From positions 1 to 50,601 of IMG/VR virus record IMGVR_UViG_3300036770_004099: a stretch of DNA of 50,601 bases; one strand, written 5' to 3'. Within the stretch, counting starts at the first letter, position 1; each line of letters opens with the position of its first letter. This stretch comes from a virus (lineage: Duplodnaviria > Caudoviricetes). Of the stretch, positions 1 to 15,685 are shown piece after piece. The translations under genes were made by a program, and so were the position numbers. Under the pieces are notes generated by a model, which did not search any database, was not told where the DNA came from, and was given only the letters and a program-made list of their open reading frames with translations.

Positions 1-236
1 GGGGATCATCTGATAGGCTACAAGCAGACGTCCAAGCATTAGGTCCAGAAAACTTCACCAGAGAAATACTTTATCTTTGCAAATCCAAGGCAGAAATGTC
101 ATATCTAGAAGCAAGAGAGCAGTTCGAACGCCGAGTCTTAGAAACAGATGACTATTATAATGGTATTATAAATGTTAGAGTTGGCGGCTCGAACATATTA
201 AGGCAACGTCTTTTAGAACAAAATCAGGCAAAATAA
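1..236 (+). CDS. 3' end (partial) of a small GIY-YIG-like nuclease of T4-like phages
   Basis: Frame starting at nt 3 reads GSSDRLQADVQALGPENFTREILYLCKSKAEMSYLEAREQFERRVLETDDYYNGIINVRVGG..., stop TAA at 234-236. The G.ENF.REIL...E...YYN pattern matches the C-terminal half of GIY-YIG (Seg-like) domains. Not in the ORF track because it is truncated. Confidence 0.7.
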   Translation, partial: GSSDRLQADVQALGPENFTREILYLCKSKAEMSYLEAREQFERRVLETDDYYNGIINVRVGGSNILRQRLLEQNQAK

Positions 237-249
237 AAGCGGTTTTTGG

Positions 250-620
250 CTTGCACTGGCTTATTTTCAAGTGCCTAAGAACAACTGGACCACGGGTCTC
301 AGGGACGGAAATCTACGCCGCAGTAGTACTCAACCACTATCCTTAACAGGACGTTAATGGCAAAGACCTTGCTGTATGGTTGTTTGGAGAGCGAAATAGG
401 CAAAATGAGGGGAGAAAAACCCCACGTCTATGCAGATGATAGCAGATCTGTATAGGCCGCCGTTGTGATAAGACTGAGCTCGAGGTACCGGACAACCGCC
501 TCTGTAATCGCTCTACTGCTGTGTGACATTGTTCGACTCGGATAATGCTTCTTAGCCCTTGATTGGGCTAAGTGTGACTGAACGATCTGGATAATACTAA
601 CTTTGCGCTTCGCGCAAAAA
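250..620 (+). ncRNA. Putative large structured non-coding RNA (family unassigned)
   Basis: No convincing ORF. More than 10 helices readable by eye, e.g. 428-437/446-455, 551-558/565-572, 331-336/377-382, 527-535/539-547. Long-range pair 304-308/460-464 and a loop pseudoknot 441-445/516-520. G-U pairs favour the + strand. Confidence 0.6.
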
Positions 621-709
621 AATAATTTCACGCATCTTTGGAATAATTAAAAGAAAGAGAAATTGCGTTGAGCGCAAGCGAAAACGCAAACGAGCGTTAG
701 CTCGTTTTT
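602..709. other. Cluster of three stable hairpins around an AT-rich spacer; the last (688-709) is terminator-like
   Basis: TTTGCG-CTTCG-CGCAAA (602-618); TTGCGTT-GAGCGCAAGCGAA-AACGCAA (663-689); AAACGAGC-GTTA-GCTCGTTT followed by TT (688-709). Confidence 0.6.
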
Positions 710-743: not shown

Positions 744-2642
744 ATGAGATTACTACACCTCGAACCTCAACTGAAAAGAAATTATCTCTATGAAAGCCTA
801 GATAATTCTGGAAGAGATTCTATAATACTATGGGAAACTGCTGGAGTTAAACTCAAAGAAGCAGCATTGACCGCTGATCAGATACAGGGACTGTTCAAGG
901 AAATCGAAACAGCCCAGACAGCCGCAGGCGGTAACAGAACCATGTTAGGCAAAGGCAAGGATGCTGCATCAGCAGTTAACAAAGCCTGGGAAGATCTCAA
1001 AACAAAGATACAAGATTCAGGCCCTGTCAAAGATTTCGATCAAAAGGTCAGTGATGTGCTCAGCAAAATCGGCATGGGCGCTGAAGATCCTCAATTCCAA
1101 GGCGAAGTCAGTGGTTGGGTGCAGAAATACAGAAAGTTTGCCAAAGAACATCCCATACTGCAGGGTGCTATCTATGCCACGCTGATCGCTTTGGCTGGTA
1201 TCTCAGGTGCTGGCGTAGGTGGTGCCGTGGCTCTAGGTCTGCTCAAGATGGCAGACCAACTGCTGCAGGGCAAGCGTGCCTCTAGTGCAGCCTATTCAGG
1301 TGTCAAGGCCGGTGCTATGGCATTCGCTGCCAGCAAACTAGGTGACCTGATCAAAGGCATGAAGCCCGGTGATCAGGTTCCCAAAGTCATTGACGGCCAG
1401 GACATAGTGGATATTCCGGGCGTGCCTAAGATGGATTTCCAGAAATACGATTACTATCTAGGTGACAGCGGCAACGTGGTAGCAGTTCCCAAAGGTATGG
1501 GCAATCCCTTCACAGGTGGGGGCGGAGCAGGTGGTATCGGCAACATTGACGGTGCTGACCTAGTTCCGTCCGGTGCTAAAATCACAGACCTTTCCAATCG
1601 AATCTTTGATCAAAGCCTCAGCAATGTCGAAGGTAGACATGCGGCTCGTCAGGCAGTGTCTGCTGCTCTAAAAGCCGGAGACCTTACCGCTGAACAAGGC
1701 AAAGAATTGATCAAGCAGATAGGTTCGGCAGCAGCCAATCCCGAAGCTGCTGAACGGGTCATAGCACAGACTCTACAGAATGTAGGAGGCAGCGCGGCTA
1801 AAAGTGCTGCCAAGAGCGCAGGTACATCTATCGCTGACATAGCATCTTCTGTTTCTGATCTGCCCGTGGGAGGAGGTATCAAAGCACCAGATTTCGATCC
1901 AGGAGACCTACCCAAAGGTGCTGATTCGGTATCTTCTGGTGGCGGCGCCACATTAGAAAAACCTTCCGCTGGACTCAAATACGATATCATCGACGGTGCC
2001 AAGACCGTAGATTTTGGAGGATCTAAATACACGTTCGCCGGGCTAGGTGAAACACCACCCGAAGGTGTAGAGATAGTTAACAAAGTCAAAGGCAGTCAAG
2101 GTATGATCGGTATTAGAGGTATCAAACCTGTGACACTGAGCCTAGGTTCGGATGGCAAATATTATAATCTCGGTGATTCTGTGATACGCACGGGCCGTGC
2201 GCTCAGCGAAGGTCAGGTCTACATGGTGTTCAATCGTGTGGTCTCTCGCAATGATCAGATGCTCAGCGAAGGACGATTAGTTGAAGGACCGTTAGATGCT
2301 ATCAAAGGTGCCGCAGGCAAAGCCATGGACTGGGCCAAGACCAAAGGCAAAAACCTAACTACTAAAATTACTGCAGACAAATTAAACTCAGCATGGCAGA
2401 AAGCCGGTTCGCCCACAGACAGCAACGCAGTCGCTGACTTCTTAAAAGCACAAGGAGTAGCAGACACGGTGGTCAGCACGGTGTATCAACAGTTGAAACT
2501 GCCTGAACCAGGAGCCGCAGCAGCAGGTCCTGAGGCAGGTGCTGTAGATATCGAATCGGTCAAACAGATGATTGCTAAATTGCCTACAGAACGCAAGATA
2601 CGATTGATAAATTATATGAAAAATCAACTCAAGGTGGCCTAA
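744..2642 (+). CDS. Hypothetical virion protein, probable internal head/ejection protein (632 aa)
   Basis: Long ORF after a late promoter; L-x-E motifs (LYES, LKEA, LSEG, LVEG); hydrophobic segment ILQGAIYATLIALAGISGAGVGGAVALGLL; Ala/Gly-rich. Confidence 0.6.
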   Translation: MRLLHLEPQLKRNYLYESLDNSGRDSIILWETAGVKLKEAALTADQIQGLFKEIETAQTAAGGNRTMLGKGKDAASAVNKAWEDLKTKIQDSGPVKDFDQKVSDVLSKIGMGAEDPQFQGEVSGWVQKYRKFAKEHPILQGAIYATLIALAGISGAGVGGAVALGLLKMADQLLQGKRASSAAYSGVKAGAMAFAASKLGDLIKGMKPGDQVPKVIDGQDIVDIPGVPKMDFQKYDYYLGDSGNVVAVPKGMGNPFTGGGGAGGIGNIDGADLVPSGAKITDLSNRIFDQSLSNVEGRHAARQAVSAALKAGDLTAEQGKELIKQIGSAAANPEAAERVIAQTLQNVGGSAAKSAAKSAGTSIADIASSVSDLPVGGGIKAPDFDPGDLPKGADSVSSGGGATLEKPSAGLKYDIIDGAKTVDFGGSKYTFAGLGETPPEGVEIVNKVKGSQGMIGIRGIKPVTLSLGSDGKYYNLGDSVIRTGRALSEGQVYMVFNRVVSRNDQMLSEGRLVEGPLDAIKGAAGKAMDWAKTKGKNLTTKITADKLNSAWQKAGSPTDSNAVADFLKAQGVADTVVSTVYQQLKLPEPGAAAAGPEAGAVDIESVKQMIAKLPTERKIRLINYMKNQLKVA

Positions 2643-3970
2643 TGAAGATCGCAGAAATACTACTAGAATCCCAACTGCAAGAAGGTCCATTGCTGAACAA
2701 ACTAGGTTCAGCCATAGGCAAAGGTGTAGGAACATTGGCCAAAGGTGCTGGAGCAGTGGCCGGAGGTATCGCTGGTATTGGAACTGCTTTGAAAAAAGGG
2801 TATCAGGCTGGCAAAGCGCAGGTAGGTGCTGCTGGCGATGATACAGCAGAACCTGCGGCAGCACCGCAATCACAACCTGCTGCCGGTGGCGCATCAGCAG
2901 GCAAACCTGCAGCACAGACACCATCTAAATCGGCAGGTGCTACAGGATCGAGTGGCGCTGCTGGTGCTACGGGATCGAGTGGCGCTGCTGGTGCTACGGG
3001 ATCGAGTGGCGCTGCTGGTGCTACGGGATCGAGTGGCGCTGCTGGAAAACCAGGTGCTGCTGGACAAGATGGTGCTGCTGGACAAGATGGTGCTGCTGGA
3101 CAAGATGGTGCTGCTGGACAAGATGGTGCTGCTGGACAAGATGGTGCTGCTGGTGCTGCTGGAAAACCAGGTGCTGCAGGTGCTACGGGATCGAGCGGTG
3201 CTGCTGGACAAGATGGTGCTGCTGGACAAGATGGTGCTGCTGGACAAGATGGTGCTAAACGAGGTGTATCAAAGCCAGGAAAACCCACTTTTACCGGAGT
3301 ACCTGATTCTCAAGGAAGGATTGAACCTAAGATGGGATCTGCAGAACCTGCCAACGATTCTCAGTATGCCCAAGCACAAAAAGCTATAGCAGCACTACAA
3401 CCTGCCGATCAGAAACAAATATTAACTACTTTGCAATCGGATCCAAAAGTTAAAGCCTCTCTAGATAAACAGTTAAACAAACAACCTGCAGCAACACCTG
3501 CAGCAACACCTGCAGCATCTGAGAAGAAACCCGAAGCCGCTGGTAAGAAATCGACCATGCCAAAGAAAAAAGTAGCACCAACTCAGGCAGAGATCGATGC
3601 TGATCGAAATCGTGTAATGGGAATGACTTCAGACAGCATCATAAGAAAAAATAAATCGTTGATTGAAAATATTGATGAAGCAGGATTGATGGCTAAACTA
3701 GGAACCAAAGTAGGACAAGCAGCACAGTCAGTAGGTTCGGCCGCAGGACAAGCAGTTGGAACAGTCCAACAGGCAATAGCAGATCCTGAACATTCTAAAG
3801 CATTAGTCAAAGCATTTGCTAAAGGAGATACCAGTGCTGATCCAAACAGTGCTCCTCCGATACAGGATAGCAGTGGTACGGTACCTAGACCTATTATCGA
3901 CAAAATTAATCAATTAAATTTAGAGCAACGTGCAGAATTGCATAAACTCATTACACAGAAAACAGTATGA
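2642..3970 (+). CDS. Collagen-repeat protein, probable internal head protein (442 aa)
   Basis: Coupled to the previous gene by a TAATG overlap; N-terminus MKIAEILLESQLQEG; 36 consecutive Gly-X-Y triplets. Confidence 0.65.
   Translation: MKIAEILLESQLQEGPLLNKLGSAIGKGVGTLAKGAGAVAGGIAGIGTALKKGYQAGKAQVGAAGDDTAEPAAAPQSQPAAGGASAGKPAAQTPSKSAGATGSSGAAGATGSSGAAGATGSSGAAGATGSSGAAGKPGAAGQDGAAGQDGAAGQDGAAGQDGAAGQDGAAGAAGKPGAAGATGSSGAAGQDGAAGQDGAAGQDGAKRGVSKPGKPTFTGVPDSQGRIEPKMGSAEPANDSQYAQAQKAIAALQPADQKQILTTLQSDPKVKASLDKQLNKQPAATPAATPAASEKKPEAAGKKSTMPKKKVAPTQAEIDADRNRVMGMTSDSIIRKNKSLIENIDEAGLMAKLGTKVGQAAQSVGSAAGQAVGTVQQAIADPEHSKALVKAFAKGDTSADPNSAPPIQDSSGTVPRPIIDKINQLNLEQRAELHKLITQKTV
2936..3259 (+). repeat. 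Coding tandem repeats (27-nt GATGSSGAA and 18-nt GQDGAA units) forming a collagen-like (Gly-X-Y)36 tract
   Basis: ggtgctacgggatcgagtggcgctgct-type unit x4 plus 1; ggacaagatggtgctgct x5 plus x3 (last copy degenerate). Confidence 0.95.
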
Positions 3971-4086
3971 AATTTCAAGAACTCACCGAACAAGAAATTG
4001 ACATTAATGCTTTGGCTGATGAAATAGTCAAAGGCGGAATGCAGGTCTACGAAATGGTTAAAAAATTAATCGAACCAAAAAATTAA
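3967..4086 (+). CDS. Small hypothetical protein (39 aa) MKFQELTEQEIDINALADEIVKGGMQVYEMVKKLIEPKN
   Basis: ATGA overlap with the upstream stop; N-terminus resembles T4 internal-protein capsid-targeting sequences; below the ORF-track cutoff. Confidence 0.55.
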   Translation: MKFQELTEQEIDINALADEIVKGGMQVYEMVKKLIEPKN

Positions 4087-4313
4087 AAGAACGGTAATTT
4101 TGTTTTTTTAGTTGTTTCGAGATTTTCTTTGATAATTTCGCCTACGATCAACCGCTCATCATAACTTAATGTCAGCGCTTCCTGATAACTCATGCCGCGC
4201 ATATACCAACAGATCTTAAGCAGATCTTTTTTGATGTCTCGTTCTTCTTTTTCCAGTTGTTTAACATACTCCTGGATCTCAACCAGAGACAGTGTCAAGA
4301 TCCTTTGGCGAAA
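4083..4313 (-). CDS. Baseplate/tail assembly chaperone C-terminal module (gp51-like), probably expressed as a -1 frameshift extension of the upstream gene
   Basis: Reads ...RQRILTLSLVEIQEYVKQLEKEERDIKKDLLKICWYMRGMSYQEALTLSYDERLIV...KLPFF; lies in the -1 frame directly after the slippery sequence at 4310-4319. Confidence 0.6.
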   Translation of the reverse strand, partial: FRQRILTLSLVEIQEYVKQLEKEERDIKKDLLKICWYMRGMSYQEALTLSYDERLIVGEIIKENLETTKKTKLPFF

Positions 4314-5173
4314 AAATTTGTTTGATCTAACTCTAGATTCACAGACCATTCGTGTCCGCAATTTGAACATTTGACCTGTTGCGACTGCATTTTCATCACT
4401 TCTTTCATGTGATCTACATGATCTTTGATAGTGTTAAAAATCTCGCTAGTGGTATTTTCTATAAAGTTTTTTATAATGTCAGTGTCAGATACTGTGCCTT
4501 CTGGAGTGGTGATACTTTCGATACAACCGCATATGACATCCACAGTCATTTCTGTGAGTTTTAAAAAACTAGAACCAAAGCGTTCGAGTTTTTCTTCATC
4601 GCTCATGTTTTCGTCATTGACCACAGCAAAAATTTTCTGTTGTTCTAGAGTTTTAATCGCAGTCTTTGAAACTTCTCTATAAGAATAAGGACGTATCTTT
4701 ATAGTCAACGGGCCTATCTGTAAAGTATCTTCATAAACAAATTGTGAAACAGTATCTAAATATCCTAGTAAACTCATAACGAAATCATTCAACGTTTGGC
4801 AATTAGGACAGGTAGATGTGACATCCATATTATCACCGTAGGTAGCGATACGAATAGCAACCAAACAGGCATCGAGATCTAAACTGGGCATCTGCCATGG
4901 ATCTTTGATCGCAGGAATACAACTTTTAATCACGCTCACGGTAGCCTGTCCATTCATCAAAGCGTCCGGAGTTTTAAACATCAATTCGTCTTTGGCTGTC
5001 ATGGCAAACACAGGATATTCGTCGATGGCGCTGTGATCCAACGATCCTTCTGGATAAAATCTTCCTTGGCTAGGCAATCTAATAAAGATTTTTGGTTGTC
5101 TAAAATAATTTGATAGAGGATTTCCAGCAGTCTTTACTGCCTGTGCGATTGGATTCACCTGTTGTTCCGACAT
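4295..5173 (-). CDS. gp26: Baseplate hub assembly protein, T4 gp26-like (292 aa)
   Basis: NPL..YFRQPK..I.LPS.G.FY, MTAKDEL..KTPDAL.NG, D.DA.L.AIRIATYG, two CxxC pairs (CPNC, CSNC), terminal NFF motif; adjacent to the tape-measure-like gene. Confidence 0.75.
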   Translation of the reverse strand: MSEQQVNPIAQAVKTAGNPLSNYFRQPKIFIRLPSQGRFYPEGSLDHSAIDEYPVFAMTAKDELMFKTPDALMNGQATVSVIKSCIPAIKDPWQMPSLDLDACLVAIRIATYGDNMDVTSTCPNCQTLNDFVMSLLGYLDTVSQFVYEDTLQIGPLTIKIRPYSYREVSKTAIKTLEQQKIFAVVNDENMSDEEKLERFGSSFLKLTEMTVDVICGCIESITTPEGTVSDTDIIKNFIENTTSEIFNTIKDHVDHMKEVMKMQSQQVKCSNCGHEWSVNLELDQTNFFAKGS

Positions 5174-15057: not shown

Positions 15058-15133
15058 TAAATAAAGTATCTAGAATGATTTATGCGGTACCCGCCGCGTA
15101 TGACCTAGAACGTCAACCTAAAGGAGAAAACAA
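15056..15133 (+). promoter_or_regulatory. Late promoter GATAAATA plus structured 5' leader
   Basis: Promoter 15056-15063; helices 15081-87/15094-100, 15069-73/15105-09, 15101-04/15112-15; SD AAGGAG. Confidence 0.6.
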
Positions 15134-15685
15134 ATGGGACGTCCAATTAATAAAAGATATTTTGGAAAACTGCCTGACGCAGATGATCCAACGCTAGCAC
15201 CGCAGAGCGGCGATACGTTTTTTAACGTCAAAGTTAATGCACAAATTGGTTCAGCCGCGGAAAGTGCGATAGCATTTATTCTAGCGCAGAAAGGATCTAC
15301 AAAATTTCTAGTAGCCAACGGTGTTTTAGTAAATGACGAAGATTTAGTTACCGGTACCAAATATGTGATCAATGCCGTAGGAACTACTGACTGGTCTTCT
15401 GTGGGAGTAGAGGGTGATGCATTTGTAGGAAAAGTATTCACAGCCACAGGAGCAGGATCTGGCACAGGCACAGCAAGATTAGCAGGTGTCTGCAAATTAG
15501 TCGATGCTGCAGATGGTTCTCTGGGAGCCGACGAAATGTCTATCATGGGACAATTATCTAACGGATCTCAAGTAAGAGTTAAAAAACTATATAATCGTAC
15601 AGCTAGAGATTTCAGCAATAATAGATACAAATGGAATATTGTTGACGACTCTACAGCCACAGTACTACAATTAACAGCGATTTAA
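15134..15685 (+). CDS. Hypothetical virion protein (183 aa)
   Basis: Strong SD, own late promoter, beta-rich composition; lies next to the capsid gene. Confidence 0.7.
   Translation: MGRPINKRYFGKLPDADDPTLAPQSGDTFFNVKVNAQIGSAAESAIAFILAQKGSTKFLVANGVLVNDEDLVTGTKYVINAVGTTDWSSVGVEGDAFVGKVFTATGAGSGTGTARLAGVCKLVDAADGSLGADEMSIMGQLSNGSQVRVKKLYNRTARDFSNNRYKWNIVDDSTATVLQLTAI

Follow-up and report, generated by a model that had tools for sequence, protein, structure and literature searches.

A large pseudoknotted RNA of T4-like jumbo phages as a candidate primer precursor of a transcription-activated replication origin

Large ornate RNAs such as GOLLD, ROOL and OLE are carried by phages or bacteria, and their function is unknown. 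The R-loop origins of T4, described by Carles-Kinch and Kreuzer in 1997, reportedly combine a transcript-primed start with an A+T-rich region downstream and are present several times per genome; to our knowledge, T4 origin transcripts have no need for a covarying 360-nt fold or for a twin word. For the ColE1 RNA II, the 1990 work of Masukata and Tomizawa is said to have established that an upstream stretch of the RNA pairs with template DNA located downstream. RNA II is a long folded RNA with a persistent hybrid at its 3' end and RNase H priming (PMC5043065). Two Rfam motifs also come close to the locus studied here: Polynucleobacter-1, which in the searched literature is named in a single paper, that of Weinberg et al. 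(2010), the table of which lists it without a stated function and marks it 'y' for cis-regulation (PMC2864571), and cow-rumen-2, which in the searched literature is named in Rfam 15 papers only.

The RNA described herein lies near the start of a 50,601-nt stretch of caudoviral DNA (IMG/VR record IMGVR_UViG_3300036770_004099, positions 1 to 50,601; hereafter, the window), in which portal, protease and capsid genes downstream provide the context of a T4-like jumbo phage, whose capsid protein shares 66-70% identity with its counterparts in Phosso, PA5oct and GAP32-type phages. Like GOLLD, ROOL and OLE, it is a large ornate RNA, but it is about half their size and ends in a DNA-level signal, and Rfam scans gave no match to any of the three. 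It resembles the T4 R-loop origins in its T4-like genome, in a putative transcript-primed start, in the A+T-rich region downstream and in occurring, among its relatives, several times per genome. With ColE1 RNA II it would share an upstream RNA stretch that, on comparative evidence, matches downstream template DNA, although here this stretch is a variable purine-rich word and not a G run, and the element belongs to phages and is multi-copy in relatives. Its parts and flanks are as follows, in window coordinates:

1-236, plus strand: GIY-YIG gene of the SegE type, truncated at the window edge so that its 3' half is present (phrog_447, E 2.5e-15)
about 239-598, plus strand: complete structured RNA of ~360 nt, its ends inferred from conservation
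239-326, plus strand: 5' domain, with pseudoknots 239-243/317-321, 249-251/258-260 and 253-257/270-274 and hairpins 285-302 and 313-326
425-522, plus strand: core domain, common to cow-rumen-2 and apparently also to GAP32/RaK2-type RNAs, with a 10-bp stem and the kissing loop 439-445/516-522
463-466/492-495, 476-479/510-513 and 482-485/499-502, plus strand: further helices of the core domain, from pair counts and covariation
540-549, plus strand: twin word copy 1 (GGATAAT + GCT), the proposed DNA-invading RNA stretch
551-572, plus strand: CCC/GGG hairpin between the word copies, 80.5% paired
589-598, plus strand: twin word copy 2 (GGATAAT + ACT), the template strand of which is the proposed target
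602-618, minus (template) strand: hairpin with a GCGAAGC mini-hairpin, which also scores as a minus-strand terminator-like site
621-662, no strand assigned: A+T-rich spacer, 24% GC
663-707, plus strand: two palindromes with mini-hairpins GCGCAAGC (672-679) and GCGTTAGC (694-701), of the GCGN(N)AGC pattern
744-2642, plus strand: next gene, 632 aa, with no PHROG match and varying among relatives at that place

The comparative evidence indicates that the structured plus-strand RNA at about 239-598 is real. The 507-nt gap from 237 to 743, between the GIY-YIG gene fragment and the 632-aa ORF, contains no ORF, and positions 250-620 fold with an MFE z of -2.29, in agreement with the nested pairing, in an otherwise gene-dense region, reported in the preliminary description of this DNA. 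The structure proposed there was scored on 70 of the 77 dereplicated sequences of type A, the type of the window (mean identity 68%; seven were dropped for length or a deletion), in which 84.3% of cells are paired and both partners vary in 52 of 71 pairs, with 0/500 shuffles as high and 36-46% in slid controls. A revised structure with more pseudoknots reaches 91.2% paired and two-sided change in 50/75 pairs (0/500 shuffles; slid controls, 32-44%), values to be read with the relatedness of the sequences, which the shuffle tests ignore, and with the derivation of the revised structure from those same sequences. Covariation, present across the 70 homologs, confirms helices 253-257/270-274, 331-336/377-382, 409-412/420-423, 428-437/446-455, 476-479/510-513 and 482-485/499-502, as well as the kissing pair 441-445/516-520, which extends to 439-445/516-522. 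Helices 313-316/323-326, 340-343/348-351, 359-363/369-373 and 551-558/565-572 are supported more weakly. Two proposed helices required amendment: 285-291/295-302 fails in its strict register but pairs with a bulge, and the long-range 304-308/460-464, although 85% paired, has one covarying pair, 463-466 pairing better with 492-495 (97.8%). Helices 239-243/317-321 and 249-251/258-260 had not been proposed before; the first lies outside the Rfam model for this region, is 95.7% paired and changes on both sides in 4/5 pairs. Since G-U exceeds A-C on the plus strand (341 to 119 over the whole structure and, within the 10-bp stem, 111 to 3), the RNA body acts as a plus-strand RNA, and pair counts and covariation together support the earlier view of a large, multiply pseudoknotted phage RNA.

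The same description had found no known match for this RNA, which proved wrong, as Rfam cmscan places 248-385 (plus strand) in Polynucleobacter-1 (RF01718) at 88.9 bits (E 1e-17; gathering 37) over the complete model, 1-141. It had also named a confident Rfam hit as removing the novelty and, because the 5' 138 nt match Polynucleobacter-1, novelty is in part refuted; the middle resembles cow-rumen-2, but the RNA as a whole falls under no Rfam model. Its failure to match a tRNA, tmRNA, RNase P or group I/II intron, also stated there, was borne out by the lack of Rfam or ARAGORN matches to these. Likenesses to the group I S element, RNase P P4, T-box, T-loop and DnaA box were rejected, having no Rfam support and different covarying partners. 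Compared with Polynucleobacter-1, the window RNA is ~215 nt longer downstream and 9 nt longer at its 5' end, and it has pseudoknots missing from the model. For cow-rumen-2 (RF02947), an E-value scan gave 426-521 at 18.9 bits, under the gathering value of 66; the likeness comprises a UAGC-loop hairpin, a GCCG..UAC(A/C)GGAYRACCG core and a twin word around the 3' hairpin, whereas the cow-rumen-2 RNAs differ in their 5' domain, are present in 3-4 copies per genome and lack a GIY-YIG neighbour.

These relationships were followed with a type A core model (R1), which matches rumen copies at 29.7 and 30.1 bits, and with a cow-rumen-2 core pattern, which recovered 79 loci, 15/16 of those tested passing the Rfam gathering value. 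Two complete rumen phages carry four copies apiece and a near-complete rumen phage carries three; in each of three freshwater contigs (62-80% complete) there is one clear copy. A second kind of RNA, type B (L066, L072, L077; 59 non-redundant loci), occupies the same slot as type A with other 5' and middle domains but the same twin-word module and tail, and shows some covariation and no Rfam match. A descriptor joining sequence and pairing, written after its target sequences had been seen, recovers 72/77 type A, 16/24 rumen, 19/19 Rak2-type and 0/59 type B copies; searched against three phage contigs totalling ~950 kb, it found known copies only, and 2.85 Mb of shuffled sequence contained no match. 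A GTDB scan yielded 109 pattern matches, of which 80 were fetched; these were mostly chance, R1 keeping 8/80 at E < 1e-4. Copies of the cow-rumen-2 type, near-identical to those of rumen phages, were seen on MAG contigs labelled Methanobrevibacter and Coprovivens (L432, L444, L483, L458), which are probably phage contigs binned into those MAGs. A stand-alone RNA with the shared core was also seen in L340 (~2501-2557), with a promoter-like sequence upstream and no cow-rumen-2 match at gathering.

Among cultured phages, a blastn search with the element gave a single chance hit. The syntenic slot in GAP32, PA5oct and Phosso is a gap of 0.8-1.5 kb beside an EndoVII or Holliday junction resolvase gene, and in Vibrio phage 2.275.O it is filled by a gene. 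Conservation of the GAP32 slot extends to 72 cultured-phage records, in most of them at 4-5 places, and the multi-copy RNA of GAP32, 121Q and RaK2, which is not in Rfam, appears to have the core sequence and two helices in common with type A, as well as, in GAP32-type copies, a hairpin similar to 551-572. Five same-strand copies lie at 35, 99, 177, 262 and 341 kb of GAP32 (spacing 53-84 kb), each preceded by the promoter-like motif TGGTATAAT. R1 matched one of these five copies, weakly (18.7 bits, E 0.003), and the reverse model R2, of the Rak2 type, missed the window, giving nothing significant; a gapped pattern with mismatches had 0 matches in four Rak2-type records, although a DNA query did find copies. 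Paralogs of the PA5oct slot lie at 12.9 and 246.2 kb, the latter inside the published ncRNA004, which is transcribed at a low level according to RNA-seq (PMC7318152). A search of the PA5oct supplements for the slot coordinates gave no match, and comparison of the type A descriptor and model with the PA5oct and Phosso elements showed no homology.

The preliminary description does not mention two parts of the element, a 7-nt word present twice and, at 602-707, the DNA-type hairpins. Positions 534-546 and 583-595 form imperfect direct repeats flanking hairpin 551-572, and both copies of the word are identical in 205 of the 210 distinct loci among the matches listed, with more than 10 different words, a count in which the search pattern had already set part of copy 2 (viral sets) or the best-matching pair was chosen (metagenome set). 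The three variable positions of the word match in 76/77 type A loci and underwent 15, 15 and 4 parsimony changes on the RNA tree; rumen and Rak2-type copies have matched words of their own, and the word differs between copies within one rumen genome. Throughout the phage contigs it is neither enriched nor avoided. Because the RNA has no complementary column and the complement is not in excess nearby, the template strand is the only guaranteed complement, and 540-549 of the window could form ten pairs, one of them a G-T wobble, with the template of 589-598. Beside the word, the copies differ by a G in copy 1 and an A in copy 2, or by a U in copy 1 and a C in copy 2, which is the direction that pairing of copy-1 RNA with the complement of copy 2 would tolerate. 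At position 9 the direction counts are 14 to 3 in type A and 10 to 0 in type B, and at position -5 they are 11 to 0 in type B. The 9-nt contexts are fully pairable from copy 1 to template in 18/34 and 8/13 cases, against 1 and 1 in reverse, in samples that are non-independent, as the phages are related, and with position 8 almost fixed. The CTC/TCT triplet before the word differs between copies, with two letters against the proposed direction, and probably bounds the hybrid. Even if the element were no origin, the lock-step identity of the word and its one-way wobble bias point to an RNA that would recognise a nucleic-acid strand in cis.

The tail that follows copy 2 consists, in this order, of the minus-strand GCGAAGC hairpin, the A+T-rich spacer and two plus-strand GCGNNAGC hairpins. 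Its commonest plus-strand loop, C[TTC]G, occurs 124 times in the 210 loci among the matches listed, and 304/436 tail hairpins have GNA/GNNA loops on one strand or the other. Plus-strand GCGN(N)AGC is present in the tails of 107/148 type-A-like and 49/62 type B loci, against a background of 0.036 per equal stretch, but in only 3/24 rumen copies is such a mini-hairpin found downstream; on the minus strand the pattern is less specific, because the RNA body of 55/148 loci has it. Mini-hairpins of this type are more stable as DNA than as RNA and are located at the G4 and RSF1010 priming sites (PMC13037366).

The preliminary description offered three guesses at the function of this RNA, a partner of the adjacent nuclease, a ribozyme or a replication primer, and it is the last that is best supported, by inference. 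We consider it somewhat more probable than not that the element serves a T4-like jumbo phage as a transcription-activated replication origin, the RNA being a primer precursor similar to ColE1 RNA II, because of the geometry of twin word and template, the DNA-type tail and the evenly spread same-strand copies of GAP32. RNA polymerase would read through from the gp47-gp46-GIY-YIG genes, or start, in relatives, at a dedicated promoter, and the folded RNA would present copy 1 (540-549). When the polymerase passes copy 2 (589-598), copy 1 would pair with the template DNA there and hold the bubble open, as a result of which the transcript is proposed to remain paired with DNA along the A+T-rich tail. 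Leading-strand synthesis would then be primed from the 3' end of the RNA or from a cut made by RNase H, and the mini-hairpins, formed on single strands, might serve to load primase/helicase or to signal a stop. In Phosso the slot is followed by an RNase HI gene; on the other side of the balance, by Pfam PF00075, RNase HI was detected in 1/5 genomes and in none of G001, G002 (partial), G004 and PA5oct. The skew follows the coding strand, and its minima, 4 kb from a copy in two contigs and 14 kb in one, coincide with gene-orientation switches. As regards an antisense RNA I like that of ColE1, one weak minus-strand promoter-like site, at 363-336, is within chance.

With a little less confidence, short of an even chance, we envisage Polynucleobacter-1, cow-rumen-2 and the GAP32/121Q/RaK2 RNA as one class, in which a programmable word would invade its own template DNA and fire origins, and in which the conserved pseudoknot core may itself be what opens the DNA or generates the end used as primer. 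In the window, two catalogued and so far unexplained Rfam fragments are joined into one molecule of ~360 nt, and the origin reading, if true, would give a function to two orphan motifs and replication origins to a large group of T4-like jumbo phages. The literature searched, which lies mostly outside subscription journals, describes neither the full RNA nor such origins. Since related copies exist in cultured phages, a compensatory test of the twin word is directly possible there.

Other readings account for part of these observations. It is unlikely, though the best placed of them, that this is a free trans-acting ornate RNA, a scaffold or protein sponge of the GOLLD/ROOL kind, with the twin word as a dimeric-protein site or a homo-paired self-recognising element. 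The large pseudoknotted fold, the stand-alone multi-copy genes of rumen and GAP32-type phages and the rarity of mini-hairpin tails among rumen copies would suit such an RNA, but the frequent change of the word among close phages, and between copies of a single rumen genome, does not, and the one-way wobble bias and the DNA-type tail would be left unexplained. We regard as quite improbable a ribozyme or template RNA, in which the identical words would be processing or template-jump sites (circularisation, or repeat synthesis as in telomerase or DRT2). Its compact double-pseudoknot core is kept across three classes, and identical words around a hairpin are reminiscent of template-realignment repeats; yet no internal guide is complementary to the word, an RVT_1 gene is present in 0/5 contigs, the repeat unit has no further copy in three contigs and the window, and no Rfam ribozyme family was matched at E up to 10.

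Slightly less probable again is an RNP with the adjacent GIY-YIG protein, in which the RNA would serve as guide or scaffold in the manner of HEARO or omega RNA. In relatives, the upstream gene order is gp47-gp46-small ORF-GIY-YIG, and the full-length homolog L011 matches Pfam PF19835 (SegE_GIY-YIG) at 121 bits, the motifs GFVY, YxG, E and YN being kept; the protein family, phrog_447, is named 'NAD synthetase' in PHROG and many GenBank records. A protein-fragment scan, with 80 of 598 relatives kept, showed the element in 69/69 homologs of the nuclease gene for which 330 nt or more of downstream sequence was available (58 type A, 11 type B), and two motif scans added at least 120 loci each. The gene is directly upstream in 70/70 type A and 64/65 type B motif-found loci with sufficient flanking sequence, among the matches listed and not dereplicated, and the RNA starts within ~20 nt of its stop in most. 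However, in an independent core-motif scan of metagenomes (contigs of at least 1.2 kb), the GIY-YIG gene preceded 62/70 loci and another gene or a promoter-like sequence the other 8/70, two of these with a gene that reads, in translation, as resolvase-like. Three rumen phages with 3-4 RNA copies have no phrog_447 ortholog, and the protein, found in 510 phage records, is followed by no long gap in the five cultured T4-like phages examined. The constant nuclease pairing of HEARO/omega-RNA systems is missing here, no free variable guide was seen, and no GIY-YIG protein column tracks the twin word. The nuclease partnership suggested earlier is therefore not supported: an obligate RNP appears unlikely from these sequence comparisons, and the GIY-YIG protein is probably a syntenic neighbour and not a required partner. 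In L582, ~34-nt tandem repeats precede a type-A-like RNA without a GIY-YIG gene. Most relatives have a basic ORF of 65-85 aa between gp46 and the GIY-YIG gene (L001:2569-2799), for which no Pfam match above cut-off was obtained and which was found in none of the cultured phages.

Least probable is a role in cis, as a leader that regulates the downstream late gene or as an intercistronic stabiliser for it, with the tail palindromes as RNA hairpins. In favour, the RNA has the orientation of the next gene, Polynucleobacter-1 is marked for cis-regulation, and a minus-strand terminator would also suit 602-618; against it, the gene that follows is variable and in places inverted, the C[TTC]G loops speak for the opposite strand of the DNA, and no terminator or RBS switch was seen. 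Elsewhere in the window, a freshwater-2 RNA (RF02980, 58.4 bits) is located at 15064-15136 on the plus strand, directly before an ORF at 15134. On the minus strand, a gp26-like baseplate hub gene (4083-5173) overlaps a short ORF at a T run, and a T run ending in TTTTTTC is present near 4310-4316 of the window, within this gene. The plus-strand gene at 2642-3970 encodes a 442-aa protein with collagen-like GAAGQD/GATGSS repeats.
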